From IMG/VR virus record IMGVR_UViG_3300030098_000471, positions 1-61,077 of that record: a DNA stretch of 61,077 bases; one strand, written 5' to 3'. How positions within the stretch are numbered: the stretch's first letter is position 1; the number at the start of each line of letters is the position of its first letter. The stretch comes from a virus (lineage: Duplodnaviria > Caudoviricetes). The notes below the pieces were generated by a model, which made no database searches, was not told the origin of the DNA, and saw only the letters and a program-made list of their open reading frames with translations. A program made the position numbers and the translations under genes. Shown in pieces: positions 9,387-59,862 of this stretch.

Positions 9387-10304
9387 TTAGCCAGCGGAAC
9401 CGAAGAACCCACGCCAATCAGAGACACCGAAGCTATAACGCTCACGGGCTTTGAAACGAAGGTTTCCAGTATCGAAGTCAGGCTCCATCTTGGTCTGAAG
9501 CGGAGAACGAATGAACATTTTTGTTCCATTCGGTGCATCAGTTTTAACAAACCACGCATCAGTATCAGTGAAGCGACGGTTGATGAAGTAGCCTTCAGGC
9601 ACCATACCCATATTACGAACAGCATTGATAGCATTCGTGTTAGGGTTGGCATCTGCTGCACTGGTTCCCGTATTACCGGGGCTGCTGAGTACCTTGTCAG
9701 CAACGGCCCAATAGTCAACAGGGATGTGCAAAGAAACAGCACTGGCACCAATCAGAATACCACGATCATCTTTGATCTTCTGAATAGACGTTAGTGCAGT
9801 TTCAAGAGTTGCTTCTGATAGGTCAGACGCAGCCAAAAGGTTGGACTGATTACCATCAGAAATAGTTGGGTGAGCCGCAGAGAAGAATGCAGCACCATCA
9901 CCAATAGTATCAGAGAAACCATTGTTGAAAATGTTTGCAGCTTTCACCTGTTTGGTATTTGCCATTGCTCGTGCAAGACCTTTCGCACGAAGTTTAGCAA
10001 ACGTATCATACAGATTATCTTCCATTGCTTCTTCAGTGACAGCAAAGGCAAGAGCTACAGTCTCAGCCGTATAACGGGCCGTGTAGCTTTCCTGTGCGTC
10101 ATCATAAGAAACTGCGGAACCCTCACCTTTAGTAGGTGCAGTACCGAAACCAGTGAAGAGTACTTCTTCTTCAAAGGCACGATCCGAGTTCTCGATTTCA
10201 AAGAGAGGCTCATGCTCATTGTTCACCTCTCCATACTCCATTCCAAATACGGCATTAAGACCGGGAAGGAGTTCTTTACTAATACTAGCTCTATTTATAG
10301 CCAT
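9387..10304 (-). CDS. Major capsid protein
   Basis: MAINRASISKELLPGLNAVFGMEY...DFDTGNLRFKARERYSFGVSDWRG, typical of marine phage MCPs; follows scaffold. Confidence 0.9.
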   Translation of the reverse strand: MAINRASISKELLPGLNAVFGMEYGEVNNEHEPLFEIENSDRAFEEEVLFTGFGTAPTKGEGSAVSYDDAQESYTARYTAETVALAFAVTEEAMEDNLYDTFAKLRAKGLARAMANTKQVKAANIFNNGFSDTIGDGAAFFSAAHPTISDGNQSNLLAASDLSEATLETALTSIQKIKDDRGILIGASAVSLHIPVDYWAVADKVLSSPGNTGTSAADANPNTNAINAVRNMGMVPEGYFINRRFTDTDAWFVKTDAPNGTKMFIRSPLQTKMEPDFDTGNLRFKARERYSFGVSDWRGFFGSAG

Positions 10305-10319
10305 AATAAATCCTCCCTA

Positions 10320-10934
10320 TTATGCCGAAGAAGCCGTAGCCGTTACGTATCGGTCACGGTGCATATTCAACCAGACTTCTACGATTGGATAAGCATCAGA
10401 ATCCTTTTCATCAGGATACTTGGCTTTACCAACGACTCGTACTTGTTTTTCGGATTCAGCACCACTTGCACCATCTACGTAATAACTGGATTGACCAGTA
10501 GTTGTATTACCAGATGAAGCAGTAGAACTGACGGTTACGTTATAGTTCTTGACAATCGCCAACTCTGCAGCCGACAATGACAAGGATGCTTGAATGTAAT
10601 AAGTCTGATCAGGATCAGTTATTACAAAAAATTTAATATCCGTGGCACTCGTTCCACCGTTCCAATAACGTGCGAACTTTTGCTCTCCATTTTCAACATA
10701 TTGACATCCCATGAAAACACCAGAAGGTTTAAGAGTACCTGCAACATATGGTGAAATAGTTGCAAAGTTAGCTCCCGGTAAAACCACAGGGTCGCCAGTA
10801 AAAATGTTGTTGGTGGGTGAACCTGCCATGCCAGTTGAAGTCAACGTGATCATGTCGGTTACAGCCTCATTATTATAGGCACCACCTTTTTTACGAGCAG
10901 GAATGAAACCACGAAATGCTTTAGTAGTAGACAT
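10320..10934 (-). CDS. Capsid decoration / minor capsid protein
   Basis: IFTGDPV, GVFMGCQY and DPDQTY motifs; immediately upstream of MCP. Confidence 0.65.
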   Translation of the reverse strand: MSTTKAFRGFIPARKKGGAYNNEAVTDMITLTSTGMAGSPTNNIFTGDPVVLPGANFATISPYVAGTLKPSGVFMGCQYVENGEQKFARYWNGGTSATDIKFFVITDPDQTYYIQASLSLSAAELAIVKNYNVTVSSTASSGNTTTGQSSYYVDGASGAESEKQVRVVGKAKYPDEKDSDAYPIVEVWLNMHRDRYVTATASSA

Positions 10935-10962: not shown

Positions 10963-11457
10963 CTAGTTCTGAAAAGAAGGTCGCCTTCCTCGTGTTGTTA
11001 CTGATTTACTTGTGTTGGAGATAGGCATACGAGAATCAGAGTTTTTCATGAGTTGTGCATTAACTGCATCCATCATGTCATTCGCTTTATTCTCATAGAA
11101 CTTTCTCCTAGCCTTTACCTTACCTGCTGGCATCTTTGCCAAAGCTAAGTCTCCACGACAGACTGTACCAAGGTATCGGCCCTCGTCCCTCACGAAGGAC
11201 GTAACAGCTAATTCAGGAACTTCATCAGGAGTTACAAAGACCCAACCTGCTTGTTGTTTCTTACCAACATTAGCAATGTCATCTTGACCTTTTAACGATA
11301 TACGTATCCAACGAAGGGCCATGCCTTCATTATCAAAACGTGCTTGTACCACATCTGGTATGGTGAGGGCATCGGGTTCCTCAAAGGTCCAATCTTCTTC
11401 TCTTGTATTCTGTTCTCTCAAACTGTCACTACGTGTTTCATTTCGTGTTGTATTCAT
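10963..11457 (-). CDS. Head-module protein
   Basis: RWIR...GWVFV...GDLALAKMP; between scaffold and capsid genes. Confidence 0.65.
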   Translation of the reverse strand: MNTTRNETRSDSLREQNTREEDWTFEEPDALTIPDVVQARFDNEGMALRWIRISLKGQDDIANVGKKQQAGWVFVTPDEVPELAVTSFVRDEGRYLGTVCRGDLALAKMPAGKVKARRKFYENKANDMMDAVNAQLMKNSDSRMPISNTSKSVTTRGRRPSFQN

Positions 11458-12401: not shown

Positions 12402-12457
12402 TATATTCTCCGTTGTTTACGAGACAAACGCTTTACGTATAAATTAATTACTATACT

Positions 12458-12486
12458 ATTATACCACACTTTTTGCTTCAATGCAA
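12458..12486 (-). promoter_or_regulatory. sigma70-type late promoter
   Basis: TTGCAT-17 nt-TATAAT with TG extension; nearly identical to 18385..18413. Confidence 0.8.
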
Positions 12487-12493
12487 GTTATGT

Positions 12494-12910
12494 TTATCCT
12501 TTTCCTAAATTAAATGTTGGATCAAGGTCTTTTGGATCATCTATTCGCATAATTATTTGATCATCAAAAAGTAATATTAGTCTAACACCTTGATAAAAAA
12601 GTTTTGTACCAGCATGTTTTCCATAACATACATAGTCTCCTACACTACACCAAGAACCGTTAGGAAATTTATCTACATCTTTGTAGGCTAACTCACCTAA
12701 TCCTATTACTTCACCTACTGTTGTGAGATAACTAATATCATCCTTGGTAGAATCTGGTATAAATATACCTCCTTTTGTTTTACTCTTTACCGATACTGGT
12801 TTTATTAACACATGAAAGCCCGGTAATACTGGTAAACTTTCAATATCTTTTTCTTCTGCATCAATCCACTCATCGTTTTTTAACGCATTACCCATTTGTA
12901 CTTGTCTCAT
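12494..12910 (-). CDS. groES: Co-chaperonin GroES-like protein
   Basis: VLIKP...KTKGGIFIPD...GEVIGLG...VGDYVCYGKHAG...LLFDDQI. Confidence 0.85.
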   Translation of the reverse strand: MRQVQMGNALKNDEWIDAEEKDIESLPVLPGFHVLIKPVSVKSKTKGGIFIPDSTKDDISYLTTVGEVIGLGELAYKDVDKFPNGSWCSVGDYVCYGKHAGTKLFYQGVRLILLFDDQIIMRIDDPKDLDPTFNLGKG

Positions 12911-13110: not shown

Positions 13111-13284
13111 CTACTCTTTTCTAGTGCTTTTCTTTGGATTAGGCATCTCATAAGATTCCTTATCCCATTCATTTAAGGCACTACGCATACTACGTCCACC
13201 CCAAACATCTTGTTTAAATGGATCACCAAAACCTTTGGAAGTATTCTTTACATGCTCTGGATAACCCTTACCCTTCTTCATCAT
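13111..13284 (-). CDS. 57-aa hypothetical protein (not in ORF track)
   Basis: Translated by hand: MMKKGKGYPEHVKNTSKGFGDPF...; AAGGAG RBS; ATGA overlap with portal stop. Confidence 0.55.
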   Translation of the reverse strand: MMKKGKGYPEHVKNTSKGFGDPFKQDVWGGRSMRSALNEWDKESYEMPNPKKSTRKE

Positions 13285-15758
13285 GAGTCTTCTCCTTTTT
13301 TCATTTCTTCAATTGCAATACGTGACAATGTATTAAGTTTAGTATTCTCTATATCTTTATCATCTTTTAATTCTTCAACTTTAAGTTTACCAAGATTATT
13401 AAGTGCTGTAATTTCTTTCTTGGATTCTCTATCTGCTTCAGCCTTCTCACGCTTAAAGTTATCAGAAGCACCAGACTCAATCATATCAAGTATCTGTTCA
13501 TTCTCTTTAAGTTCAAGCTCTTTTGTTTTAAGTTCAAGTTCAGCAGCATTAACAACCGTATCAGATTGTAGTTTCTGTTGTTGTAGTTTAACCTTCTCTT
13601 GTTCAAGCATAACAAGCTGCTCTTCTGGTGTAGGTGGTGGTGGCTGTTGATTGGCTTGCATAACTTTCTGTGCAGCCTGTGCCATAGCCATTTCAACAAT
13701 AGCAGGTTGATCTTGTTGATCCTGTGGAACTTGTTGTAATTCTTGAGATGTAACACCATTCATTTGTTCCTGATACTTCATTACAGAATGTTCTTGTACA
13801 TTAGATTCAAGAACAGGTTTAATTCTAGCCATAATAGGATTAGCACCATTAGCAGGATCTTGAAGATAAGCCATCTTTACCTGTATATGGGCATCATGAT
13901 TCTGTGCAGGAAAAGCTGCAATAGGTAAACCTTTGGTTACTGCCATGATATCAGATACAGGATCAAGCGGTTGTGGCTCAATCTTGGGTGGCAATATCTG
14001 TTCTAGGTTAGGCATATTGGCTGCATTGAGAATAGTTCTATTGAGTTCCTCAATGTTAAACATTCCCGGTGGGGATTGCTGTGCCATTTGCAGAGCCATA
14101 TTTGCCAACATCATACGATGAGCATTAGAAGGAATGTTAGGATCAGAGACAGGTATAATATCTACTCGTCCATCAAAGTCAGCTTTAAATATACTACGAT
14201 CTTCAAATGGTACTTCATATGGATATTCATCTGGTAGATAATCATAATCTATCTGTGCCAGTATTCTAAATTCATCTTTCTGTGACTTGTGTAATCTTTT
14301 ATGAACTGCAGAGAAGAACTTACTAGAAGCTTCCAGCAATGCCATTGTTGTACCCACGGGTCCATAGGAGGCAGCATCAGAGATAACTTGCTCAGTACTA
14401 TCCGCAAACTTCTGACCAGCAGCAGTTACGAACCCAAGCATCTGGAAGAGCGTTGAGGAAGGCTCTTTATAGGGCAGGGGAACTATAGCCCTAGATAAAT
14501 CAATACCAGTTGCTTCGACCTCCTTGAACTCGCCGGGGGCGATAGGATCATTGTCGCCAACCATCCGCACTCCTTTGGCCTTAAATCCTCCCGGTAAATT
14601 AGCAAACTGTCCTGCATCAATTAAGGAGCGCATCGCAGCAGTTGCCGACATGGTGAGATTACCAAGGAAATGGATCAGGCCCAATCCATAGAATCCAAAG
14701 CCCGGTACAAACCTGTAATGAACGAAATGACTTCGCTTTTCTTTGTTTGGATCGTCCTGCTTGTAGTTTCTACGAATACTTAAAACTTCTCTTGACTGTT
14801 CTTCTACAGTCACAATGTAAGGGCATGGCACACCTTCTTCTTCAATATCAAGATAACAATGCTGTTCCAGTATAACATATTGTGGATCAGAATCATATGA
14901 AGGTGTAATTCCCAGAATATTATCAATCTTACTTGCAAATCCACTTACTGAAAGCTGTGATGGTGCTGGAAGATCAATATCTTTATAGACACCAGCCATC
15001 ATATCCAGTTTCATATCTACTGGACTTTTATGTATTACATGTGTATAACGATCTGCATTTCTAAGATCACTTGCGTAGTAAGACACATAGAACTGGTCTA
15101 TTGGTATAAATTCTGATACAGGTCGCTTTAGTGTTGAACTATAATAAATCTTTTTAAATGCTGAACCTATAAGTGGAAGATGAAAAAGCATTCTTTCAAA
15201 TTCATCAAAATACTCTGGCATCTGCTCAGTAAGCTGAAAGTTCATAAAGTTCTGAACTCTATTGGACTGCATTTCTTTTTCTGGTGTAGCTGCACCAAGT
15301 ATCTGAGCCTTGACAGGACCAGAAGAAGGAAATAATTCTTGCGTAGCTTTTGATTGAAACTTAACAGCCGACTCAATTAGAAGAGGATGTACAGCAGTAC
15401 ACGCACCTTGAAATGGTTCTGAGCCTTCTTCCAGTTTTAGACCAAGCAGATCAAAACCTCTCTCAAACATAGACTCCCATTCAGCCCTGCTATCTTTATC
15501 TGCATTATAATTTTCTATAACATCAGAAGATATTTCTTGAAGAATTTCTTCATCTATATTTTCACTTAGATCACCATACCACTCACTAATTTCTTGTGAA
15601 GGTTCCATCATAGCTTCTTCTGAAGAGAAGTCTACAATAACACCACCATCAGTAGGATCAATCTCAATAGATACATTGGACTGTTCTTCAGGAACCATTG
15701 CAATAACATTGGTTTCTGTTTCAGGAATCATATCAAAAGGATTACGTTCTGTTGCCAT
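13281..15758 (-). CDS. Portal protein
   Basis: 825 aa; PFQGACTAVHPLLIES, LPLIGSAFKK, PGFGFYGLGLIH, LPYKEPS motifs; C-terminal coiled coil. Confidence 0.9.
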   Translation of the reverse strand: MATERNPFDMIPETETNVIAMVPEEQSNVSIEIDPTDGGVIVDFSSEEAMMEPSQEISEWYGDLSENIDEEILQEISSDVIENYNADKDSRAEWESMFERGFDLLGLKLEEGSEPFQGACTAVHPLLIESAVKFQSKATQELFPSSGPVKAQILGAATPEKEMQSNRVQNFMNFQLTEQMPEYFDEFERMLFHLPLIGSAFKKIYYSSTLKRPVSEFIPIDQFYVSYYASDLRNADRYTHVIHKSPVDMKLDMMAGVYKDIDLPAPSQLSVSGFASKIDNILGITPSYDSDPQYVILEQHCYLDIEEEGVPCPYIVTVEEQSREVLSIRRNYKQDDPNKEKRSHFVHYRFVPGFGFYGLGLIHFLGNLTMSATAAMRSLIDAGQFANLPGGFKAKGVRMVGDNDPIAPGEFKEVEATGIDLSRAIVPLPYKEPSSTLFQMLGFVTAAGQKFADSTEQVISDAASYGPVGTTMALLEASSKFFSAVHKRLHKSQKDEFRILAQIDYDYLPDEYPYEVPFEDRSIFKADFDGRVDIIPVSDPNIPSNAHRMMLANMALQMAQQSPPGMFNIEELNRTILNAANMPNLEQILPPKIEPQPLDPVSDIMAVTKGLPIAAFPAQNHDAHIQVKMAYLQDPANGANPIMARIKPVLESNVQEHSVMKYQEQMNGVTSQELQQVPQDQQDQPAIVEMAMAQAAQKVMQANQQPPPPTPEEQLVMLEQEKVKLQQQKLQSDTVVNAAELELKTKELELKENEQILDMIESGASDNFKREKAEADRESKKEITALNNLGKLKVEELKDDKDIENTKLNTLSRIAIEEMKKGEDS

Positions 15759-15761
15759 TAT

Positions 15762-17666
15762 TTAATTCCTATAAAGTACATTGCGTATTCCACCACCACC
15801 TTTTGCAAAGGCTTGATCAATTTCTTCTTCATCGTAGTAAGACCAGTTATCATCGTCTTCTTCTTCTTCTTCTATAATAGGCTCTGGTTCTGGTTCTGGT
15901 TCTGGAGGAGGTGGGGGAAGTTCATTTCTTACTCCACCAAGCATACCAATAATACCTTCATAAGTTGCTGGATTTCTATCTAATCCATAAATTGAAGCTA
16001 GTTGTGCTACATTATAGGGACTAACATTACTGGCACCACCATAATAATCTTCATTAAAAGTATTAATTGCACTGGATGCACCTCCAATATCAACAGGTAA
16101 ATAGCTTCCCATTGTTTCACGGGCTAAGTTTTTTCTATATTCTGCTAATTCAAAGGGATCTGAAGAAGTAGGAGGAGCAGTCATAGAAGGTCTATTCATT
16201 GGAAAATCAGGAACAGTATACTTGCTAGGTTGTCCTAGTTTTTCAAGATATAGTTCCATTGCTGATTTTTCTTTTGCCTGACCACCTTCATTTCTATAAA
16301 CCATACCACCTGCTGATCTATATTTTAACATATCTTCAACAGCAGCAAGATTTGCTTGACGGCGTTTTTCTTCTTCAATTTCTGCTCTGACTTTTTCTAA
16401 AGTATTCCTTCTGCGGTCAGCTTCAGTTTGCCTCGGCCCACCCAAAGGTGAATTAATTCCTCTAACTTCTCTTGCAGAAAGTGATGGTAAATCTAATACA
16501 TTAACTATATCTTGTATTCTTTGATCTTCAATAGCGGCTCTATTCCTTGCATCTCTTTTATCAGCCTCTGTCTGTATTGCTGTAAACGCAGTATTTGCTC
16601 TAACACTATTCATATCAGCTAGTGCATCTCTATATGCTTGAGCATCACGATCAACCAAACCTAAAACATCTGTAGCATATTGATTTGCTGTTGCTACTGC
16701 ATTTCTATCAGCTTTTTCTTTACTAAGTTGTGCTTGAACTGCTTGTGGTGATACATAACCTTCTGATCCTTTTTCTCCTTTAAGACCATCTCTAAACTCA
16801 CCAATACCTGCAAGACCTGAAAGATCTTTATCAGAACCAGCTAATCTAGAAAGTGTTTGACTAGTTGAAGGAGTTCTTGAGAATGCACTAACTAAACTAT
16901 CTTTTGCTTTACCAAAAAGACCACTAATACCACCTAGTTCATCTATAGTTTTACCAAGTTGTATTGTTGGACTAAATTCCATAGCAGCTTTACCTAGTTG
17001 TCCACCAAGCGCACTAAACATATCAGGACCAGTATAAGTATAGTTACCAAATTTATCCACAGCTACTTGTGCATCAAGGTCTTTAGCTGCAAGTTCTTTA
17101 TTTAGTGCCACAGCATCTCTTTGATTTGATATATCAATAGAACGATCAAGCTTATCAAAATATCCTAAGTCTTGTCTTTCATTATATCCAATTAAACCTA
17201 AATCTTCTAATTTATCTATTTCTTCCATAGATAAACCTATACCACCATCAATATCACCAATAGCTTGTCCAGATAAATCTGCAGAAGCCATATCTGCAGC
17301 AGCTTGTCCAGCACTTGCTTGAGCTTCAGGATTTGCTCCTGCTGCCGCCGCTGCCGCTGCTGCTGCATCTGCTGCTGCCATTGCCTCTGCTGCTTGATCA
17401 GCAGTTAAACCAGTATCTTCACCATAACCTTGTGGATCACCTTGTATCCCTTGACCCATAGATGGACCTGCTTTTTCTCCTGTAATTTGACCAAGTTCTG
17501 CATCATCCCTATCTCTAGCAGTTTGGGTATTATTACCACCACCTTCACCATCTTCACCATCACCACCAAAGCAGCAATGCTGAAGTTCATATTCATTGAA
17601 GTAGTTTAACCACGGCTGTTTAGCAGGGCCATCATTCCACATTTGTTTTTTAAATTCTTTCAACAT
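15762..17666 (-). CDS. Putative internal/ejected virion protein; candidate acyltransferase substrate
   Basis: 634 aa; N-terminal segment ending QHCCFGG, Ala/Gly-rich, YRxxGG motifs; overlaps the HlyC-like gene. Confidence 0.65.
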   Translation of the reverse strand: MLKEFKKQMWNDGPAKQPWLNYFNEYELQHCCFGGDGEDGEGGGNNTQTARDRDDAELGQITGEKAGPSMGQGIQGDPQGYGEDTGLTADQAAEAMAAADAAAAAAAAAGANPEAQASAGQAAADMASADLSGQAIGDIDGGIGLSMEEIDKLEDLGLIGYNERQDLGYFDKLDRSIDISNQRDAVALNKELAAKDLDAQVAVDKFGNYTYTGPDMFSALGGQLGKAAMEFSPTIQLGKTIDELGGISGLFGKAKDSLVSAFSRTPSTSQTLSRLAGSDKDLSGLAGIGEFRDGLKGEKGSEGYVSPQAVQAQLSKEKADRNAVATANQYATDVLGLVDRDAQAYRDALADMNSVRANTAFTAIQTEADKRDARNRAAIEDQRIQDIVNVLDLPSLSAREVRGINSPLGGPRQTEADRRRNTLEKVRAEIEEEKRRQANLAAVEDMLKYRSAGGMVYRNEGGQAKEKSAMELYLEKLGQPSKYTVPDFPMNRPSMTAPPTSSDPFELAEYRKNLARETMGSYLPVDIGGASSAINTFNEDYYGGASNVSPYNVAQLASIYGLDRNPATYEGIIGMLGGVRNELPPPPPEPEPEPEPIIEEEEEDDDNWSYYDEEEIDQAFAKGGGGIRNVLYRN

Positions 17667-18102
17667 TGTTCACCCTATTGCTCCCCAACCGTTTAAAATT
17701 AACTTTATTTGGTAATCCTAATTCTTTTCTTAGGTTATCCAATCTCTTAATTGCAATACGTGTACCACCAAAAGGACATATCACATCTATCAACCAAAGG
17801 TTATCTCCACTATTCCAATCGTGTGGTTGAATCTTTCTTGTTTTATTTTTATAACCTTCTTCAGCTTCTTCTGGTAACATTGCCCAACTTGCATAACAGA
17901 GTGGAACTTCTTCATCTACATATATTCTGTATTGGTTTAACTTTAGTGGTGGTATAACCAATCGCTGTATATCTTTTATAGTCCAGTTCTCATGTTTGTT
18001 AGACAATGATAATATAAATAATACCTTTTCTAAATCACTTTGATAATCGTGTTGCAATAATCTCTTCTGCCTTTGGTAGTAATCTAATACCACAATATCC
18101 AA
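17650..18102 (-). CDS. hlyC: RTX toxin-activating lysine acyltransferase (HlyC/RtxC/CyaC family)
   Basis: SNKHENW (SxxH), P..LNQY, YASWAML, DWNSGDNLWLIDVICPFG match the HlyC signature; true start may be TTG near 18057. Confidence 0.85.
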   Translation of the reverse strand: MDIVVLDYYQRQKRLLQHDYQSDLEKVLFILSLSNKHENWTIKDIQRLVIPPLKLNQYRIYVDEEVPLCYASWAMLPEEAEEGYKNKTRKIQPHDWNSGDNLWLIDVICPFGGTRIAIKRLDNLRKELGLPNKVNFKRLGSNRVNNVERI

Positions 18103-18328
18103 TCATGAATGCTATGGCTGGACCCCAAGTCATATCCAAGGCCCAATGTTTCATTATGGGTGGTATAAACCATTCTGCAGCTATCCACCCTACAATAACT
18201 GCTAGACCAACATCTTTAATAGCAGTCCAGTTAAAGTTTTTCTTTGTTAATACATTTGTTAAACCACCCACACCGCTTGATAAAATACAACAAGTCTTTG
18301 CGCCTAGCGTTTGAATCAACCACTCCAT
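18035..18328 (-). CDS. Holin-like membrane protein
   Basis: About 97 aa with 2-3 hydrophobic segments, AFMIGYCG; AGGAG RBS before ATG 18328. Confidence 0.6.
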   Translation of the reverse strand: MEWLIQTLGAKTCCILSSGVGGLTNVLTKKNFNWTAIKDVGLAVIVGWIAAEWFIPPIMKHWALDMTWGPAIAFMIGYCGIRLLPKAEEIIATRLSK

Positions 18329-18384
18329 GACTGCTCTCCTTTTAAACTGTAACCATATACTATCCAATATTTTTATTATACACT

Positions 18385-18413
18385 ATTATACCACACTTTT
18401 CGCTTCAATGCAA
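18385..18413 (-). promoter_or_regulatory. sigma70-type late promoter
   Basis: TTGCAT-17 nt-TATAAT; upstream of the holin-like, hlyC, 634-aa and portal genes. Confidence 0.8.
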
Positions 18414-18414
18414 G

Positions 18415-19959
18415 TTAAAATGTCCAATAAGTTTTTTTCTTCTCTGTTACTTCGTCATCATAGTGTGGATCATCGGGGTGTGTCAGGTGCCAAGATTCTT
18501 TCATATAATGTATTGCCATTGTCATGGCATCCACTTGGTCATCATGGGCCGCATTGGGAAACCTTAGTAATTCTTCTATTAATTCATCTGACCATTTCTT
18601 ATTATTGGGTATCCACATTCTACCAGCTTCTATAATGGGTGAAGCCGCATATACTCTGGATACCTTATCTCTATCTGGATTATATTCCAGTACAGGTAGT
18701 CCACCCCTTCTCATATCCTGTATCAGAGACTGTCCACTTGCCTTCTTCTCCACCATACACACGTCTGGCCTGTGTTCATCATAAAGTTTCTGTGCAAGCT
18801 TTCTCAGTTCTGGATATTCAAACCTGCCACGTATGTTTCCCAATAATATCAGGTTAGGTGTAAAATCTTCATATCCCTTTTCATCTTGATTATACATGGA
18901 GAAGATACCCCATGTCTGTATGACACTATAATCAGCCGTAGTCTTTGTAGAGAATGCCGTATCATAGGTCTGTATTATGAAGTCACAGGTAGGTGGCTCT
19001 TCGTAGTCCCAATGTTTAAGCCATCTCTTTTTTATAATACCTCCTTCTTCTGGTGTGGGGTCTTGCATGTAGAGAGCATTCCAATATCGACTACCATTAC
19101 TGGCTTTAATCTCGCTCTCGTCCATTTTTAAAATATCATCACTCTTCCATTCGGGAAAGTAACTAGATCCTACAGGTAAGTCAAGCAATTGCGCTGCTTC
19201 TTCGTCCACCCATGCAGGTATTCTAATTACTTCCCAAGGGATCGTTTCAAACTCTCCCATATTCTCCTGTTGTTTTAGTAGCCAGCCACATAGATCATCA
19301 TAATGATACCGTGTATTAATTATAACTATAGAACCATTGGGCATAATACGGGTTCTAAGCCCTGCTGGATACCATTCTTTAATATATTTTCTACCTGATG
19401 CACTGATTGCGTCCTCTTCAGACATTACATCGTCCAATATAGCTATATGTGCGCCTCGTCCAGCTATTTGAGAGCGTACACCAGCAGCATAGTAGGTTCC
19501 ATTTTGATTTGTCTTCCACTTACCAGCAGCTCTTACGTCGCTCCTGAGAGAGACTCCTTTAAAAATTTTTTGGAACTCTTCCGTATTGACAATATCCCTT
19601 ACAGATCTACCAAAATCACTGGATAACTGGTCACTATGAGAGACAGTCAGTATTTCATGTGCAGGATTTCTACCAATATACCAAGCAGGAAACAATTTTG
19701 AGCAGATAACAGACTTTGATGATCGTGGAGGAAGAAAGACCATCAGTCGTTTTGTTTTACCAGACTCTAAATCTTTTAATTTATTAGAAATAAGTTCAAT
19801 ATGTTTACCCATGCGCCAATCAGAGACAAGCATAGGAGCCATCATTCTAACAAATGTGAGAAAATCACTATTAGATTCTTGATTTACTTTAATATCTAGT
19901 AAATCTTTTAAGTTAATAAAGGGTTTTAGGTACTCGTTAGTACTTTCTAGTAATTCCAT
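18415..19959 (-). CDS. terL: Terminase large subunit
   Basis: PPRSSKS Walker A, GRGAHIAILDD Walker B, nuclease motifs YDTAF, VEKKASG, FPNAAHDDQVDA. Confidence 0.95.
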   Translation of the reverse strand: MELLESTNEYLKPFINLKDLLDIKVNQESNSDFLTFVRMMAPMLVSDWRMGKHIELISNKLKDLESGKTKRLMVFLPPRSSKSVICSKLFPAWYIGRNPAHEILTVSHSDQLSSDFGRSVRDIVNTEEFQKIFKGVSLRSDVRAAGKWKTNQNGTYYAAGVRSQIAGRGAHIAILDDVMSEEDAISASGRKYIKEWYPAGLRTRIMPNGSIVIINTRYHYDDLCGWLLKQQENMGEFETIPWEVIRIPAWVDEEAAQLLDLPVGSSYFPEWKSDDILKMDESEIKASNGSRYWNALYMQDPTPEEGGIIKKRWLKHWDYEEPPTCDFIIQTYDTAFSTKTTADYSVIQTWGIFSMYNQDEKGYEDFTPNLILLGNIRGRFEYPELRKLAQKLYDEHRPDVCMVEKKASGQSLIQDMRRGGLPVLEYNPDRDKVSRVYAASPIIEAGRMWIPNNKKWSDELIEELLRFPNAAHDDQVDAMTMAIHYMKESWHLTHPDDPHYDDEVTEKKKTYWTF

Positions 19960-19966
19960 AGGTACT

Positions 19967-19995
19967 ATTATACACTATTTTGTTCTCCAATGCAA
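19967..19995 (-). promoter_or_regulatory. sigma70-type promoter for terL
   Basis: TTGCAT-17 nt-TATAAT, 7 nt before the terL ATG. Confidence 0.75.
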
Positions 19996-20224
19996 CTATT
20001 AAATTAAAATAATTATAAAAAATATAAATTAAAGTAACTTTAAAGTAACTTTATAGCCGCCCCAAAGGTTTTGAAGAGAAGTCCGTAATTTTTTAAAAAT
20101 ATTTGTCAGTGCTGTTTTATATATATACAGTGGCGGCGAATTTTTCCCCGTGGTATCGCACGAGCCTTTATAATTGCCGAATTTTTAAAAATAAAAGATA
20201 CCTTATAAATATATATTCCAAACT

Positions 20225-48936: not shown

Positions 48937-51900
48937 TTATTTAAATTTATTAAGATAATCGGATAAACTAGTTCCATTAGAATCTTTTGGATTGTATTTA
49001 CCACCAGTTTCTAAAAATTTTTTCATGCCTTCTTTACCACCTAAATGAGCAACAGCAGTAAGTCCATTACGAGTTACAAGAATACCCTTTATTGTTTTTC
49101 CAATGTATGAATTTAATTTTTCATTATTAATATATTTATTTATATCATTAACATGCCAATTAAAAACTTCATTTTGTAATTTAGAATTATTTAAAAATTC
49201 TTTTTTAGTAAATTTTTTCTTGTTAGCTTTTTTAAAGTCTGATAATCTACGATTTCCAAATTGAAATGTACCCATATAACCTTCTGTATTAACAGCAGTA
49301 GGATTATTAGAACTTTCAGATAATGCCATCTGTTCTTTAAAATTATTTTTTTGTTCAGGTTTTACTTTAGGTAATGGAGCAGTAGGTATCTGTCCCTGTT
49401 GCAGTGCAATCTTTAATTGCTCTTCTTCACCTACATTTAATGGACTAACACCTACCAAGTTCTTAAAGAAGTCTCCAATATACCCACCTTCAGCCATGCC
49501 TAAAGGTATAAATTCTGGTTTTTGATTAGTAACTTCTTCTGCATAAGCTTTAGAAAGTTTCCCTATAATTCCAAGTGGATTTCTATCACCAAATTTTTCT
49601 TGTAAAACATTTATTAAATCTCTATTATCTATTGGATTTAAAACAGCTTGAGAAAATGGAGCCTTCATTATCAATAATGCTTCCTCTCCATTTTTTTGAT
49701 ATTCCATATTGGGTCCAGAAACAGCACGAAAAATTCCATTTACACCTAAAGATTTAGGATTGCCGTTTATATCTTGATAAGAAAATAAAGAATATAGATT
49801 TAGTTTCTCTTTTAATTTATTATAGTTTTCTCTTTTTACTTGCATAGATTCTCTATATTCATTTATTATATCTTCAGCAATAGTTGGGGTAATTTGTTCT
49901 GGTTTTAATTGCCTTAAATAACTTGTAAAAGATTTATCACTTAAATCTAACTGACGCATATCTTTGTAAATACTATATCCTATAGATTTATTAATATCAT
50001 TTGTAACAGTTCTTTGCCCTGTCATTAGCCAGCTATTCATATCATCCATAGTTAAAGGATAACCATATGAATTACGAGCTATTTCTGCTACCTCTGAAGC
50101 TTTCATTTGATCAAAGTATGCTCTAACAGCTTGAGATGTTCCCGGCTCTAAAGTCCTAGCAAGTTCAAAAAAAGTACGTTTTATATTTTCACCACTCAGT
50201 CCCGGTTGCTCTTCTGAAAATAAATCTCCATGACCTATCATGCTTGCAGCAATATTAATAAGACCATCCGCTACAAACTTTGGAGATGTATATGGACCTA
50301 AAATAGATTTACCCAATCCTTCAAGAGCATCTCCTATTGTAGTAGAGCTTAACATATCTCCACCAAGTATCCGACCAGTTAATCTTACACCAACTTTACC
50401 AAAATCTGCTGCATCATATTGTGCAGAGTTTGCATATCTACCTATTATAGATCGTTGACCAGTTTTAGAATCTACTATTTCTTTAAAACCTTGTAACACG
50501 TAAGGGTTAGCACCTCTTGCAAAAGATGGTCCTGTTGATTCAATAACTCTTTTATTTATTTCATTTTGTTCAGAAGCAGAAATATTTTCATTAGGAGTTT
50601 CTGTTAATAATTCATTATTAGCATTTACATAAGATTCAAGTCCATAAGTAGTAGCAGCAAAACCTGTTCCTCTTCTAACACCTCTTTTTATTAATCTTGC
50701 ACCTACTTTTATATTTCCTTTTCTTAGTTCATTAGAACCTTTAATTAAATCTGTTAATGAATGTTTAATAATATTTTTAGATGTTCGTACCATTTCAGAA
50801 GGAAATAAAGCATACGTACCAACAGGTAATCTAGATAACATTCTAGCTCCCGGTGCAGCCACACTATATGAAGGCATAACATCACGAACTATTTCAGATG
50901 CCATTGAAAATAATTCATCATCTGAAACAGTATTACCATATATCTTTTTTAATTCTCTGTATTCTATTTCATGAGCTATTAATTTAGCATATGTATCAGG
51001 AACACCATAAGCTTGACTTAAATTTTCCATACCTTTTTTATAAGTTTTTCGTAAAGGGTTTTCTAAAGTTTTACCATATAAATTAATATTTTTACGAATC
51101 ATCTCTGAAGATAAATCACTATCAACAACACCTTCTTCTCTTAATCTTTCTAATCTTTTTAAAGATTCTTTATTATCTAATTTATACATTTGGAATACAT
51201 CTTTAGTTGCTTGTTGAACAACATCATCTTTTCCAATAGCAGAAAATATATATCCATTACTTCCAAGATTTTGAACAGCACCTAAAGTATTTACAAAGTA
51301 TGCAGGTATATCTAAAACTGTTTGAGTAGCCTGACCATATGCAGCAACTTGTGCTAATGTATTACCAAATTTTCCACCACCTAACTTTGAATTACTCCAG
51401 TAATCTATACCATTTTCAAAATAATTAAAAAGTGTTTCATCTGTATAAATATCTTTTAAAAGTTTTCCAGACTGAATACCTTTCTTTCCTAATTCTTGTT
51501 TAACTAAATCTTCTAAATTTTTAGGAGTACGAGCAGGAGGTTGTTTACCTTTTTGTTTTTTAATAGTAGCTCTTTTCTTGGGTAAAAAACTTACAAATCC
51601 ACCTAAATCTATAGTAGCTGTATCTCCATCAGCTTTTTCTAAAGCTTTACGAGCAAACTCATCTAGTGTTGAAAAGTATTCAGCACTTTTAATTAATTTT
51701 TGTTGAGTGGTTAATGTTTCAGCAAGTCTACCTACAGCATCTTTTCTTTCACCTAATAAATTTAATATAGGTTCAGTTAAATCTTGTCTTCTTTTTAAAG
51801 AATTTAAAGATTTTCTAGTGTTTGTTGCAGCTTTAGGAGTAAGATCGCCTAAAATTTTTGGTATGTCTAAAATAAAATCAGTAGAGTCTGTATCACCAGA

Positions 51901-53529
51901 TAAGTTTCTAACTAATGCAGCTATTTTATTATCAATTTGTTCTAGTGTATCTTTAGGATATTGTTTTTTTAGTGCATCTCTTGCACCCTCTACTTTACTT
52001 AAAAACTCTGCATCAACTTTTTTACCTTGAGGATCTAAGGCATCTATAATTTTTTGTAAGTAAGCAGGATTATTAACAGCTTCAAAACTTCTTGTTATAT
52101 AAAATTTACCTTCACTACGATTAACACCTAATTTTTTATCACCTTTTAGTCCAAGTAAATTATTTAATTTATTTTCATTTCCCTCTATTAAACTTCCTAT
52201 TTCTTGTAAAGATTTTAATACTTGAGTTCCTTGTAAGGAAGATGAAATAGTTCCATCATCAAAAAAGTTATTAATATCATCGTCTGTAATTCTTGTATTT
52301 ACTTTATTTTTTATTCTTTCTAATCTATCTGCATTAATTTCTTTTTGTAATTTCTTTAAAGAAGCTTTTATACTTAAACCAACATTGCTTCCTCTTTCTT
52401 TTTTAAGAGCCGCATTAAATACTTCTCTAGGAAGTGTGACATTAGATTTAAAAAATCTTCCTACTTTTGTATTTAGTTCTGCTAATCTCTCTGTTATATT
52501 ATGTCTAACAGGTTTACTTGGATCAACAACATCAGTTTCTTTTTGTAATGTTTTAACTTTAACATTTTGTGTTGAAGGAGCTTCTTCTAAATTCTTACGT
52601 ACAGCATCTGCTATATTTTGAGCATCTCTACCAACAGGCATAACACGACTTAAAATACCACCAGTAATCATTCCAAGACCTGTAGATATAGCTGCTTTTT
52701 CAAAATCTATAGGACCATCTGGTTTAGCAATAATTTGTTCTCCTACATCAAATCCACCGCCATATCCACCACCAGCAACTATTGCAGCCCCTGTTTGTTT
52801 AGCTTTTAAAATTTTAGCAGCTTGGCTTTTTAATTCATCATCTGTTACTTCTTTAACTTTTCTTTTAATAGTTTTATCTTTACCTACATTTTCAACAGCT
52901 TCTTCAACTATATTTTTTTTAGTAAGCTGTGCTGTTATTTGATTTTTAAATGCTAGTTTAGCTGCTGTAGAAGCTGCTTTACCACCAATTAATTTAGCAA
53001 GCACACCTATACCTAATGTACCCACTAAACCTACAATAGTTTCAGGAGCAAGTGCAGTGTTTTTAACAGCCCGTAAAAAACTTTTCATATCTGAATCTGC
53101 TACTTCAAATTGTTGTAGAGAATCAGACCATGCTCTTTGCTGCTCTTTAGACATATCTCCTATATTGTAAGCAGTCAATCCAAGATTAGTTAAATCATTT
53201 CCTAATTGTGAATGACGATCCATAAACCAATCGCCTATACTATTATAACCTTCTTCTTCTGCATTAAACTCTAAGTCGGGATTTTCTTGATTCCAAATTA
53301 TTTTTGCATTTTTTATCCAATCTTTATCAGTAGCTAAAGCAGATACAGTTCGAGACTCTCTATCTTTAATAGCTTTTTCATAAACTTCTTTACCTAAATC
53401 TCTAGTACGAGGTTGTACTTTTTTTAGAACATCAGAAGATATTCTGCCTCTTTTTTTAGGATCAACTGTAACTGTTTCTAAAGAAGAATCTAAAGAAATA
53501 CCTAAAGGAATAAAATTAGAAGATGCCAT
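48937..53529 (-). CDS. Large internal virion protein with C-terminal lysozyme/lytic-transglycosylase-like domain
   Basis: 1530 aa; MALSESSNNPTAVNTEGYMGTFQFG...AHLGG...DSNGTSLSDY. Confidence 0.75.
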   Translation of the reverse strand: MASSNFIPLGISLDSSLETVTVDPKKRGRISSDVLKKVQPRTRDLGKEVYEKAIKDRESRTVSALATDKDWIKNAKIIWNQENPDLEFNAEEEGYNSIGDWFMDRHSQLGNDLTNLGLTAYNIGDMSKEQQRAWSDSLQQFEVADSDMKSFLRAVKNTALAPETIVGLVGTLGIGVLAKLIGGKAASTAAKLAFKNQITAQLTKKNIVEEAVENVGKDKTIKRKVKEVTDDELKSQAAKILKAKQTGAAIVAGGGYGGGFDVGEQIIAKPDGPIDFEKAAISTGLGMITGGILSRVMPVGRDAQNIADAVRKNLEEAPSTQNVKVKTLQKETDVVDPSKPVRHNITERLAELNTKVGRFFKSNVTLPREVFNAALKKERGSNVGLSIKASLKKLQKEINADRLERIKNKVNTRITDDDINNFFDDGTISSSLQGTQVLKSLQEIGSLIEGNENKLNNLLGLKGDKKLGVNRSEGKFYITRSFEAVNNPAYLQKIIDALDPQGKKVDAEFLSKVEGARDALKKQYPKDTLEQIDNKIAALVRNLSGDTDSTDFILDIPKILGDLTPKAATNTRKSLNSLKRRQDLTEPILNLLGERKDAVGRLAETLTTQQKLIKSAEYFSTLDEFARKALEKADGDTATIDLGGFVSFLPKKRATIKKQKGKQPPARTPKNLEDLVKQELGKKGIQSGKLLKDIYTDETLFNYFENGIDYWSNSKLGGGKFGNTLAQVAAYGQATQTVLDIPAYFVNTLGAVQNLGSNGYIFSAIGKDDVVQQATKDVFQMYKLDNKESLKRLERLREEGVVDSDLSSEMIRKNINLYGKTLENPLRKTYKKGMENLSQAYGVPDTYAKLIAHEIEYRELKKIYGNTVSDDELFSMASEIVRDVMPSYSVAAPGARMLSRLPVGTYALFPSEMVRTSKNIIKHSLTDLIKGSNELRKGNIKVGARLIKRGVRRGTGFAATTYGLESYVNANNELLTETPNENISASEQNEINKRVIESTGPSFARGANPYVLQGFKEIVDSKTGQRSIIGRYANSAQYDAADFGKVGVRLTGRILGGDMLSSTTIGDALEGLGKSILGPYTSPKFVADGLINIAASMIGHGDLFSEEQPGLSGENIKRTFFELARTLEPGTSQAVRAYFDQMKASEVAEIARNSYGYPLTMDDMNSWLMTGQRTVTNDINKSIGYSIYKDMRQLDLSDKSFTSYLRQLKPEQITPTIAEDIINEYRESMQVKRENYNKLKEKLNLYSLFSYQDINGNPKSLGVNGIFRAVSGPNMEYQKNGEEALLIMKAPFSQAVLNPIDNRDLINVLQEKFGDRNPLGIIGKLSKAYAEEVTNQKPEFIPLGMAEGGYIGDFFKNLVGVSPLNVGEEEQLKIALQQGQIPTAPLPKVKPEQKNNFKEQMALSESSNNPTAVNTEGYMGTFQFGNRRLSDFKKANKKKFTKKEFLNNSKLQNEVFNWHVNDINKYINNEKLNSYIGKTIKGILVTRNGLTAVAHLGGKEGMKKFLETGGKYNPKDSNGTSLSDYLNKFK

Positions 53530-53537
53530 AATAAAAC

Positions 53538-55733
53538 CTATTGTTGTACAATACCTATGTCGCCATTTTCATTGGCAACTACTTTATATTTTTTACCACC
53601 AATTTGTATAAGTTTATTTATATACTTGCTTTTATCTCGGTTTATAGCTATCGTTGCTCTATCCCTACTACTAAATGTTCCAACTGTTTCAACATTAGAT
53701 TTATCATCGTATTTAGGAGTCTTTGAAAACGCATATCTAGTAGCTTCAAGTTGTGCTTTATAACTTGTACTCCCTAACTCATCTAATTTATTTAGATAGA
53801 GTCTTCTAAATGTTTGCAAACGGTCCATCATGTTTTGATAAAGTGGACTTTTCAAAGAAGGAGAACCTTTTCCTGCACCTAAATTTCCAAACTGGTCAAT
53901 TACAAAGCCATACTCTTTTGCTATTTCCCTCTGTGCTTTTTCAAGCTGACTTCCAAAAGCTTTATCACCTTTACCTTTATTTGCTGCAGCCTTGGCTTTT
54001 AAATAATCACCATGTATTTTATATTCCTCCATAAATCTTTTTCGTATATTACTATCCATGTTTGCTACTTCTACTTGCTGCGCTTTGGTAAGACCCAAGA
54101 ATTTTAATTCACTCTTAAATCCTAATGTATCTACATCTTTCATAAAATCCATTTCATCTTTTGCAAGTGTCATTAACATTTTATTCTTTTCTTTTCTATC
54201 AGCATCTGCATTAAGAGTAGCTTGTTTAAAACCTTCTGCCATATTAGTAAAAGCATTACCACCCGGCTTACCTATTGCTGCCGCAACTGTAAACCAAAAC
54301 TTTTGAAATGCATTTGGATCTTCACCAACAAGGTTTTTAACCATGCTTTGATATTTATTAAATCTGTTTGTTTGTTTTTGTTGAAAAGCTTTTGTCTCTT
54401 TTCTAATACCTTTTATTTCTTCTTTAGTAGCATTTCCAGTTGCTAATACTTTTCCTTCTTCAATCTTTGCTAAATTATTTAAATTTGCAAGTGTCCAACC
54501 CCTTACTCTGTCTACAGCACTAGGATCATCGGCTCTTCTTAAAATATCTGGACCTTCTCCTACTGAAGAGGTAATAGAACCAACATTGGGAGGTGCCAAT
54601 CTATTCATACCTGCTTCTTTAACAGCTTCTCTTGCTGCGTAAATATCTGATACTGGTCTATTTGCACCTGTTTGAAATGCTGCATCTTCATCAAGAAGTT
54701 CTCCTCCTCCTACTTGCCTATACACTATAGGTGGCATAACTTGACTACCCATATTTCTACGCATGTAGTTCATATAAGGTTGAGCTTGAGCCATTGAAGC
54801 AAGACCACCTCCAATAGAACCACCACCTTTAAATGGTAATTTAAAACCACCTTTACCAAATAAACCTACTCCAAGACCAGCCAATGACATTAGAGTTTTA
54901 CCTAATCCCGGTCCACCACCAGCTTGAATACCTGTTGTTGCATAGTTAGGTTGTTTCCATATTGGATTACCTAGAAGAGACTGATACCATTTATTGAGTT
55001 CATTTCGTGCAAACTCTTCTCTATCATAATATTTTGTTTGAGCTTCATCCAACATTGTCTGAGCCATCTGTTGTTTTTCTTTGCCTATAGCATCTAATAA
55101 AGCTTGCTCTTTTATACCACCAGTAAAAATTTGCCTATTTAAATTTGCCAAATCAGTAGCAGTTTGCCTCTCTCTTTCTTTTTGTTGTCTAAATAAGTTC
55201 TGAGCATCTTCATAAGCTTTTTGCTGCCCCGTAGCCTCTATATCAGCCAATAATCTTTGTTGTCCTGCTTCCATTTCAGCAGATTCTATAGCGGCTCTAG
55301 ACCCTAGACCAGACATACCACCTGCAGCTACTGCTTCTGCTTCAAACTCAGGACGCTTTGTTCTTTCATATTGACGTTGGGCTGCTGCTTTCTGAGCATC
55401 AAGGGAAGCTCTAAGATAAGGAGACATATATTTTTGAGCTTCGTCAGGGGTAAATTCAGAGGTAACTCCTCTAGTTAAACCAAGAGCTTCTTGTTGTATA
55501 GGAGCTTGGCTTCCTACTAGAGAAGCTAATCCTTGTTGAGAAGCAATTTGTTCAGGTGTAAAACCAGCAGTAGTCATGCCTGTATATGGTCTATAGCCTC
55601 TTTCTAAATTAGATTCATAGAGCCTTTTATAAGCATCTTGTGCCTCAAGCATATCTTTTTTCATCCACTCAGGATATTGACCTAACTGAGTCCCTGTGGT
55701 AGTGGTTGGTTTATCTCCAAAATTTAACGCCAT
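53538..55733 (-). CDS. Internal virion / DNA ejection protein
   Basis: PYTGMTTAGFTPEQ, YMSPY, GLGSRAAI, Gln-rich helices, Gly-rich hydrophobic segment. Confidence 0.7.
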   Translation of the reverse strand: MALNFGDKPTTTTGTQLGQYPEWMKKDMLEAQDAYKRLYESNLERGYRPYTGMTTAGFTPEQIASQQGLASLVGSQAPIQQEALGLTRGVTSEFTPDEAQKYMSPYLRASLDAQKAAAQRQYERTKRPEFEAEAVAAGGMSGLGSRAAIESAEMEAGQQRLLADIEATGQQKAYEDAQNLFRQQKERERQTATDLANLNRQIFTGGIKEQALLDAIGKEKQQMAQTMLDEAQTKYYDREEFARNELNKWYQSLLGNPIWKQPNYATTGIQAGGGPGLGKTLMSLAGLGVGLFGKGGFKLPFKGGGSIGGGLASMAQAQPYMNYMRRNMGSQVMPPIVYRQVGGGELLDEDAAFQTGANRPVSDIYAAREAVKEAGMNRLAPPNVGSITSSVGEGPDILRRADDPSAVDRVRGWTLANLNNLAKIEEGKVLATGNATKEEIKGIRKETKAFQQKQTNRFNKYQSMVKNLVGEDPNAFQKFWFTVAAAIGKPGGNAFTNMAEGFKQATLNADADRKEKNKMLMTLAKDEMDFMKDVDTLGFKSELKFLGLTKAQQVEVANMDSNIRKRFMEEYKIHGDYLKAKAAANKGKGDKAFGSQLEKAQREIAKEYGFVIDQFGNLGAGKGSPSLKSPLYQNMMDRLQTFRRLYLNKLDELGSTSYKAQLEATRYAFSKTPKYDDKSNVETVGTFSSRDRATIAINRDKSKYINKLIQIGGKKYKVVANENGDIGIVQQ

Positions 55734-55735
55734 GA

Positions 55736-56491
55736 CTATACCCTTTCCATCATTGGTCTTAATGCAGCCAATCCATTAATTTGCTCTGGTTGCTGCGTTG
55801 TTCCATAAGCTTTTTGCCGTATATTCTTTACTACTTGATCCATAACATCTGCTCCTGCATCTGCACTACCATTACCTAATGCAGCCATTGTATGAGCATC
55901 AACTACATATTCATCAGGACTTACAGCAAGTGTACCTACTTGATCTCCATCCTTTCTTTCTATTATTGGCATATAAACATTATCTTCCATGCCATGACCT
56001 TTTCCCGGTACTTGACCAGAAAATAAATCACGCATCATAAGATTCATTAATCCACCACCAGTTTCTGCAGTAACAGGAGTTTGAAGAGAAGGCATCAAAG
56101 CATCCATTGGTAAACCTTTTGATGTACTAAGTCCTGCCCTATCTGCTAAGTCTATTATAGCTTCTTCTTGTAATGATTTACCATTTGCTTTAGGTTTAGT
56201 TAAAATTGTATTAAGTGTTTCTTTAAGAGGTGGAGCTAAAGGCATTGGTGGTAATTGAGAATCTTGAGGTGGCATCATAGGAGGCATACCACCATCTATA
56301 GGAGGTGGCATCATAGGAGGCATATCAGTGCCTTGAGGAGGCATAGGAGGTCCACTAGGAGGCATAGGAGGTCCACTAGGAGGCATAGGAGGACTACCAG
56401 CACCCGGAGGTGATTGCATTAATTTAGCATCGTCCCTTAATGTAGAACTTTGCATAACCTCTTTTAATTCTTCCATATTAGGTACTGACAT
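55736..56491 (-). CDS. Internal virion protein with Pro/Met repeats
   Basis: PPMPPSG repeats; GQVPGKGHGMED...SPDEYVV...ALGNGSADAG domain. Confidence 0.65.
   Translation of the reverse strand: MSVPNMEELKEVMQSSTLRDDAKLMQSPPGAGSPPMPPSGPPMPPSGPPMPPQGTDMPPMMPPPIDGGMPPMMPPQDSQLPPMPLAPPLKETLNTILTKPKANGKSLQEEAIIDLADRAGLSTSKGLPMDALMPSLQTPVTAETGGGLMNLMMRDLFSGQVPGKGHGMEDNVYMPIIERKDGDQVGTLAVSPDEYVVDAHTMAALGNGSADAGADVMDQVVKNIRQKAYGTTQQPEQINGLAALRPMMERV
56338..56391 (-). repeat. 21-bp tandem coding repeat (PPMPPSG)
   Basis: GGAGGCATAGGAGGTCCACTA repeated on the + strand. Confidence 0.75.
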
Positions 56492-56715
56492 TACTTCACT
56501 CTTCCATAATTAGATTGTGCTTTTGTTTGATCTGCTATAAAATTTGAATCTTCAACAGATTTTATTTTTTTAAATGTTTTCATTTTCTGTGTTAATAAAT
56601 ATCTACTATGATCAATAACATTACCTTGATTAAGATTACTAATATAAGTGCTATTATTAATTAAATTATGATATTCTTCTGGTGACATTTTTTTCATTAG
56701 TTTAAATTCTGCCAA
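56491..56715 (-). CDS. Hypothetical protein
   Basis: Overlaps both neighbours. Confidence 0.55.
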   Translation of the reverse strand: MAEFKLMKKMSPEEYHNLINNSTYISNLNQGNVIDHSRYLLTQKMKTFKKIKSVEDSNFIADQTKAQSNYGRVK

Positions 56716-58822: not shown

Positions 58823-58828
58823 TTACTA

Positions 58829-59827: not shown

Positions 59828-59862
59828 TTAACATCTCCTGATATAATATCCAAATCATTTAT

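Follow-up and report, generated by a model that had tools for sequence, protein, structure and literature searches.

A HlyC-family gene and a partner gene with a conserved N-terminal tag form a two-gene cassette in the late module of a phage distantly related to HTVC023P-type podoviruses

We analyzed the complete genome (CheckV 100%) of a marine tailed virus, IMG/VR record IMGVR_UViG_3300030098_000471, all 61,077 bp of which make up the window referred to below. The locus in question lies in the late module, where the minus strand carries, in order, the genes for the terminase large subunit (TerL), a small membrane open reading frame (ORF), a 150-amino-acid (aa) HlyC-like protein, a 634-aa protein (hereafter the cargo) and the portal, followed by small ORFs, GroES-like and scaffold-like genes, two further genes, and the major head protein (Table 1). 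As a sequence-only reading of this DNA had described, the HlyC-like ORF lies between the TerL and portal genes and overlaps the start of the cargo ORF, by 17 nt (17650-17666). The portal shares approximately 41% identity with its counterparts in Pelagibacter phages HTVC023P and HTVC027P, indicating that the phage is a distant relative of HTVC023P-type podoviruses.

The 150-aa gene encodes a genuine member of the HlyC/ApxC family, with the fold of the toxin-activating acyltransferases (TAATs) and an intact His/Asp dyad, confirming the family membership that had been proposed from motifs. The Pfam HlyC model (PF02794) matched residues 26-122 with a score of 99.4 bits (cut-off 25; E 1.7e-28); it was the sole Pfam entry returned at E<=10, and searching the genome in six frames gave the same match. 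The protein also matched the sequence of ApxC (PDB 4WHN) with an E value of 3.7e-13. His37, in the SxxH motif, and Asp106, in the strand before PFG, align to the catalytic His and Asp of ApxC, which we take to be His24 and Asp93. An AlphaFold2 (AF2) model built on 44 relatives (pLDDT 84.7) pointed to the same protein: the top three Foldseek matches were 4WHN chains (E 1.9e-6 to 1e-5, TM 0.57-0.59), and generic GNATs followed at E > 0.2, leaving 4WHN as the only significant neighbors. A His/Asp catalytic dyad is stated for the TAAT family (PMC8510554). Relatives of the HlyC-like protein are 131-150 aa long, and translation of the gene may actually begin downstream of 18102, by a few to ~20 codons.

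The cargo is acidic (pI 4.4, net charge ~-43), rich in Ala, Gly, Asp, and Glu, of low complexity, and mostly disordered as predicted by AF2 (mean pLDDT 44). No relative was found for it in Pfam, PHROGs, or the PDB, where a sequence search yielded matches only at E >= 0.23, and the best score in an ESM Atlas look-up was 0.81, below lead level. Neither a tblastn search with the cargo nor a megablast search with positions 15000-20000 of the window matched anything in the phage collection, from which records of the window itself or close to it may be missing. The amphipathic stretch suggested earlier was not borne out, in that no amphipathic pore-forming or transmembrane region was detected and the best 19-residue hydropathy window was poly-Ala. 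We detected 50 cargo homologues of 354-986 aa, which are mosaics of shared and unshared segments; the first ~35 residues are nearly invariant among them (MLKEFKKQMWNDGPAKQPWLNYFNEYELQHCCFGGDG). Several longer homologues (P0003, P0006, P0008, P0012, P0014, P0022, P0027, and P0030) end in a Phe-Gly/Gln-rich module (QGFGMQSP.PFGTQQPFSSGFGGFGQ...) that recalls FG-type low-complexity domains and is unusual among phage proteins.

The conserved segment, which we refer to as the tag, includes seven positions that are invariant even in its most distant forms (M1, L2, W10, D12, C32, F33, and D36), supporting translation from the overlapping ATG; K16 is conserved in the lineage of the window only. Divergent loci retain the tag residues through synonymous codon changes, showing that the constraint acts at the protein level, and we therefore rejected conservation of the segment as an overlapping DNA or RNA element. 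Out of 1.84 billion cluster representatives, a profile search with the tag retrieved 72. For 69 of these, proteins of 53-938 aa, the match starts within the first 11 residues, which identifies the tag as a modular and strictly N-terminal signal. The single His of the cargo and both of its Cys residues fall inside the tag. When genome contigs were scanned with the tag, a single 15-residue match was obtained, on a Herpetosiphon contig (L148), and is probably due to chance. We considered and rejected three known kinds of motif as an identity for the tag: (i) a lipobox signal peptide, as there is no hydrophobic signal stretch; (ii) a double-glycine leader, as the GG is not conserved; and (iii) a Hedgehog/intein-type G-C-F site, as the Cys-Phe is followed by a low-complexity linker without a fold.

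The enzyme gene and the tag-bearing gene are tightly linked, as a survey of gene neighborhoods made clear. Wherever both sides could be read, the former was followed by the latter, in 17/17, 2/2, and 9/9 viral loci (28 viral contigs), and the HlyC-like ORF ended at the tag start in 51/51 metagenome loci with >=90 nt of upstream DNA; the remaining five of the 56 loci in that scan had too little. Certain metagenome and IMG/VR contigs represent identical DNA, and the two sets of counts overlap to that extent. The survey of overlaps and neighbors, which tabulated the window plus 49 loci, showed the 17-nt overlap in all relatives of the TerL-portal type. A further scan, with a diverse alignment, gave 57 loci, 36 of which were examined; L082 gave no ORF, and those left out were second copies of contigs already read, plus L050 and L052-L056.

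In two loci from another phage group (L062 and L063) the pair is located elsewhere, not between TerL and portal. In both, the enzyme shows 47-52% identity, and of the tag only W..D...CFGDG is left. The pair is preceded by homologues of the window genes at 56981-58822 and 56697-56981, and followed by homologues of those at 55736-56491 and 53538-55733, the last of which matches a 'DNA ejection protein' PHROG. The HlyC-like gene of these phages thus stands after a tail-tube-like gene and before ejection proteins, the slot occupied by gp13 in T7. The occurrence of the pair in two genomic contexts indicates that the two genes travel as a cassette, and its position at the head of an ejection-protein cluster is the best available hint that the cargo may be an internal or ejection protein, which makes the same suggestion in the sequence-only reading plausible.

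Upstream of the pair, a promoter-like element, TTGCAT-17 nt-(TG)TATAAT, sits directly after the TerL stop, and the earlier statement that the cassette has its own promoter therefore holds as a sequence feature. A near-identical 36-nt copy is present at 12455-12487 on the minus strand, between the GroES-like and scaffold-like genes (the other copy lies within 18380-18413), and the core 15-mer has exactly two occurrences in the genome. The TATAAT after the TerL stop was kept in 16/16 relatives examined and the TTGCAT in 11/16. A consensus promoter scan of the sequence did not rise above shuffles and missed the element at the head of the cassette. With one copy before the cassette and the other before the scaffold and capsid genes, the element is probably the late promoter of the phage.

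Between this element and the HlyC-like gene lies the small three-helix membrane ORF, which the sequence-only reading did not mention. Its likely start is the ATG at 18328, which has an AAGGAG ribosome-binding site and yields 97 aa; initiation at the first TTG would yield 110 aa. One stretch of DNA encodes both the 3' end of this ORF and the 5' end of the HlyC-like ORF. The membrane ORF is present in most relatives and absent from L016-L019 and other loci with a 131-134-aa enzyme. In relatives without it (L016, L017, L034, L035, L051, L057, and L059), the TATAAT ends 3 nt before the annotated enzyme start, too close for an ordinary leader, so that either the annotated start or the mode of initiation in those relatives is doubtful.

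Table 1. Positions of the cassette, its parts, and neighboring features in the window, with related loci in other phages
Feature	Position or locus	Strand	Evidence or remark
TerL, terminase large subunit, upstream neighbor	18415-19959	-	phrog_38, E 9.5e-110; Terminase_6C
Promoter-like TTGCAT-17 nt-(TG)TATAAT, heading the cassette	18385-18413	-	Sequence read directly; function putative
Small three-helix membrane ORF, between promoter-like element and HlyC-like gene	18035-18367	-	Weak holin PHROG matches, E 0.002 and 0.009
HlyC-like gene, 150 aa	17650-18102	-	PF02794; phrog_20210
His37 codon	17992-17994	-	
Asp106 codon	17785-17787	-	
Cargo gene, 634 aa	15762-17666	-	No Pfam, PHROG, or PDB relative
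N-terminal tag, residues 1-37 (ML..W10.D12...K16...E27..H30-C31-C32-F33..D36)	17556-17666	-	Alignments A1 and A4
K16 codon	17619-17621	-	
C32 codon	17571-17573	-	
Gly-Lys sites G225-K226, G238-K239, G252-K253	16899-17012	-	Present; not conserved among homologues
Portal, downstream neighbor	13281-15758	-	phrog_1216, E 1.8e-39
Two small ORFs after portal		-	
GroES-like gene, after the small ORFs	12494-12910	-	
Scaffold-like gene, after the GroES-like gene		-	
Two further genes after the scaffold-like gene	10963-11457; 10320-10934	-	
Major head protein	9387-10304	-	
Carriers of the GGG-type C-terminal motif	15762-17666; 55736-56491; 53538-55733		Also L023 (HTVC023P gp30); L024 (HTVC027P gp41, gp42); P0101, P0102
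HTVC115P-type loci	L064-L072, L074-L076, L078-L081, L083-L088, L001		L001 is HTVC115P gp46/gp45

A second minus-strand block, at 48937-60621, encodes a virion protein of phrog_3287 and contains tail-fibre-like genes; it also encodes three proteins that are large or of low complexity. One of the three, a 1530-aa protein encoded at 48937-53529 on the minus strand, has a C-terminal lysin-like domain (phrog_26675, residues 1402-1527) and is probably a peptidoglycan-cutting internal or ejection protein. Several low-complexity proteins, listed in Table 1, share a GGG-[LIM]-x-x-[LVM]-type motif near their C-termini (AGGMVYRNEGG, GGGGIRNVLYRN, GGGLMNLMMRD, and GGGMARMK), which may be a shared packaging or docking signal. 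In HTVC023P (L023, 6315-6920) and HTVC027P (L024, 2705-6836), the interval between TerL and portal lacks a HlyC-like gene and is occupied by different proteins, Lys-rich or of low complexity, which makes it a variable slot within the group.

The HlyC family is also found in several other pelagiphage and roseophage lineages; cultured phages with such a gene include HTVC115P, HTVC112P, and CRP-235. In the HTVC115P type (19 loci), the HlyC-like gene is always followed, mostly with overlap, by a gene for a 400-450-aa protein that starts MGS or MGA, with an N-terminus that is amphipathic and very rich in Lys and a hydrophobic segment after it; this protein is an obvious candidate for lysine acylation. 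The canonical His of these enzymes is replaced by Tyr, and a His two residues before the Asp/Glu ('WH[IM]D/E') might substitute for it. In siphovirus-type loci (L002, which is HTVC112P gp46/gp47, and L073, L089, and L090), the gene directly after the HlyC-like one encodes a lambda-J-like tail-tip protein of 719-1102 aa with a basic amphipathic or hydrophobic N-terminal extension. The HTVC103P/104P type is the exception, in that its HlyC-like gene lies within the replication module. The placement of HlyC-like genes before Lys-rich N-termini strengthens the idea that phage TAAT-like proteins may act on the N-terminus of a downstream particle protein.

For the window, the reading we favor is one of acylation, with the HlyC-like gene and the cargo gene making up a cassette that is mobile and expressed late. 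The enzyme, late in infection, would dock on the N-terminal tag of newly made cargo and, in the dyad-bearing lineage, would move a fatty acyl chain from host acyl carrier protein (acyl-ACP) onto it. The candidate acceptor in the lineage of the window is Lys16, which is kept wherever the dyad is intact; the alternative is the universally conserved Cys32. The lipid-bearing cargo, as a putative internal or ejection protein, would be packaged with the head or portal and would aid the particle at the host envelope on entry. The acyl transfer, the acceptor residue, the virion location, and the entry role are all things that we infer. We regard the catalytic part, that the enzyme in the lineage of the window acylates the cargo tag from host acyl-ACP, as quite possible though short of probable.

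Two known arrangements bear on this proposal. In hlyCA-type operons, the acyltransferase gene lies directly before the gene for its substrate. The phage protein shares with HlyC, ApxC, and CyaC, the enzymes of RTX protoxins, its Pfam family, its fold, its His/Asp dyad, and the position of its gene directly upstream of that of a presumed substrate. Also as in those systems, the phage encodes no ACP of its own, and a host acyl-ACP donor would be needed: the earlier failure to see an ACP gene was confirmed by a PF00550 search of the complete 61,077-bp record. The phage pair differs in that the partner is not an RTX protein, in the lack of a type I secretion system, and in its setting within a phage late operon; in that the partner conserves an N-terminal tag with an invariant Cys-Phe instead of internal Gly-Lys sites; and in that most of the phage orthologues lack the dyad. 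The second arrangement is that of class IV contact-dependent inhibition systems. Their lysyl acyltransferase CdiC, of the HlyC family, is described as lipidating the receptor-binding domain of CdiA, which is not an RTX protein, on a Lys that does not belong to a Gly-Lys motif, and thereby improving engagement of the target envelope (PMC8510554). According to the same source, class IV clusters without cdiC exist, so that the lipid is an add-on (PMC8510554). CdiC is, as proposed for the phage enzyme, a TAAT paired with a non-RTX delivery protein; CdiA, however, is a folded filamentous bacterial exoprotein, whereas the phage partner is disordered and its acylation is a proposal. Gene order, with the enzyme before the substrate, and the CdiC precedent together support acylation of the cargo. 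The family has also been recruited to peptides other than toxins, as in MchD and MceI, HlyC-family proteins of siderophore-microcin maturation; these differ from the phage enzyme in acting with a partner enzyme on a C-terminal serine, and no such partner or siderophore genes occur here.

Much of what we found among the relatives weighs against acylation as the general role of the pair. In alignment A3, which comprises 44 enzymes (the window and 43 cluster representatives), both His and Asp are kept in 9, whereas 33 are without them and 2 are truncated; 23 have Phe and Asn in their place, and the rest have other combinations. We built a quick IQ-TREE tree of 108 sequences over 147 columns, with the columns of the trait itself kept, and its resolution is limited. 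Within its tag-linked clade, 30 of the 83 distinct enzymes have the dyad and 53, the L034 type for example, lack His and/or Asp, the His having been lost at least once and the Asp at least three times. Several of the dyad-less enzymes contain no histidine whatever. Pairwise dN/dS is 0.14-0.56 among dyad-less and 0.17-0.23 among dyad-bearing enzymes; the former range indicates that the dyad-less forms are under purifying selection and not decaying. These forms also precede the same tag variants as do intact ones, and across the sequences compared the conservation of the tag is independent of the state of the active site. As the dyad-less forms are under selection and have the same tag partner, the function shared by the pair cannot need canonical catalysis. 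Conservation of the dyad across orthologues, which would be expected if catalysis were the selected function, was thus not what we observed. Further, Lys16 is missing from the tag in L062/L063 and in L139-L144, and neither a fold nor a membrane segment is predicted for the cargo. Cys34 was considered as a replacement nucleophile in the dyad-less enzymes and rejected, being Ser in L126 and Thr in L139-L143. Two enzymes, P0064 and P0069, have Phe at the His position together with a retained Asp, and from their sequences look like recombinants between two allelic forms. A prediction of the complex between the enzyme and cargo residues 1-60 scored 0.01 and was not used as evidence.

These losses lend weight to an alternative in which the HlyC-fold protein is non-catalytic in this phage too, and instead serves as an escort, chaperone, or assembly adaptor that binds the tag, the dyad being an ancestral leftover. 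Such a protein would either keep the disordered, acidic cargo soluble or deliver it to the procapsid, portal, or ejection apparatus. The dyad has disappeared from most relatives, through several independent losses, and these proteins nonetheless remain intact, conserved, and linked to the tag, as one would expect of an escort. Also in keeping with an escort, the differences between intact and dyad-less enzymes are concentrated near both catalytic motifs, the tag and the remainder of the protein being unchanged. The slot of the gene in L062/L063 fits as well, in that small proteins such as T7 gp13 (PF11090) and P22 gp14 are encoded directly before podovirus ejection genes, are non-structural or minor like the HlyC-like protein, and include, in gp13, one that Pfam names a 'probable scaffold protein'. 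Aligned with A3 by hhalign, however, T7 gp13 gave a probability of 0.3% over 12 columns and showed no similarity to the enzymes, and the cassette of the window has a different place, namely the TerL-portal interval; a search for literature on gp13-type proteins as acetyltransferases found nothing usable. Against an escort role, moreover, the subclade that holds the window keeps His and Asp in 28/28 rows, and binding alone explains neither the recruitment of a TAAT fold nor the Lys-rich N-termini of the partners in other phage lineages. We consider a non-catalytic escort a serious possibility, short of probable but only slightly less likely than acylation.

Acylation of something other than the cargo is improbable. 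The enzyme could in principle be active on one of the other large internal proteins that the phage possesses (of 1530, 731, or 251 aa), or on a host envelope or defence protein, with the neighboring gene a mere operon mate, and the HlyC-like gene of HTVC103P/104P-like phages does lie beside a small coiled-coil protein in the replication module; however, the two genes move jointly between two contexts, have never been seen apart, and overlap translationally as a rule. Still less probable, and in our judgment very unlikely, is the version of the sequence-only reading closest to the RTX toxins, in which lysines 226, 239, and 253 of an amphipathic stretch would be acylated and the 634-aa protein would be a pore former. 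The elements on which it was based do exist in the cargo: QHCCFGG at residues 29-35, one GGDGED, and Gly-Lys dipeptides at 225, 238, and 252 (in QLGKA, QLGKT, and LFGKA), and Gly-Lys is the classical context for HlyC and CyaC (PMC8510554). Among the homologues, however, the Gly-Lys sites vary freely and are replaced in many, which speaks against them as acylation sites, and the supposedly RTX-like GGDGED (residue 34) belongs to a variable Gly/Asp linker. In place of the tandem GGxGxDxUx repeats and conserved Gly-Lys of an RTX protoxin the cargo has one GGxGxD only, no hydrophobic or confidently folded region is predicted in it, and a PF00353 search of the complete 61,077-bp record found no RTX repeat; the sequence-only reading had likewise seen no RTX toxin gene.

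Beyond the window, acylation of the cargo would be one case of a broader scheme in which tailed phages lipidate their own entry proteins by means of TAATs encoded in virion operons and supplied with host acyl-ACP, the target being Lys16 or Cys32 of the N-terminal tag in the clade of the window and the Lys-rich amphipathic N-termini of ejection or tail-tip proteins in HTVC115P-like and siphovirus-type pelagiphages, and in which many lineages later turned the enzyme into a pseudoenzyme escort. As a whole, this scheme strikes us as rather unlikely. An analogy, functional only, is with the picornavirus VP4 and reovirus mu1N proteins, N-myristoylated penetration proteins of animal viruses that engage the membrane at entry; like the cargo as proposed, these are lipidated internal capsid proteins released at entry, and they differ in depending on host N-myristoyltransferase, in the chemistry of the modification, and in their unrelated sequences. 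We know of nothing comparable that has been shown for phages.

The gene itself has been noticed before: a figure legend in a pelagiphage preprint (10.1101/2019.12.14.876532) calls it 'HlyC, toxin-activating lysine-acyltransferase', and the HlyC label appears also in GenBank annotations. In the literature we found, mostly non-subscription and without supplements, the HlyC-like phage gene was not linked to a virion protein, the tag and the loss of the dyad were not described, and neither phage acylation nor a non-catalytic escort role was reported; protein fatty acylation of the HlyC type was described there only for bacterial RTX toxins and, recently, CdiA. The present findings place the HlyC family within the virion operons of relatives of HTVC023P-type pelagiphages, its expression tied to that of a specific partner protein. 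Acylation of the cargo would be the first instance of a phage-encoded enzyme lipidating a particle protein and would add a new element to the crossing of Gram-negative envelopes by phages; lipidation in tailed phages would give bacterial viruses an equivalent of the penetration proteins that animal viruses carry in myristoylated form. If the cargo is not acylated, the clade would constitute a natural series from enzyme to pseudoenzyme with a defined peptide tag, useful for the study of substrate recognition by TAATs. Either way, the tag, which at least 69 distinct cargos carry, constitutes a new and easily testable sequence signal.

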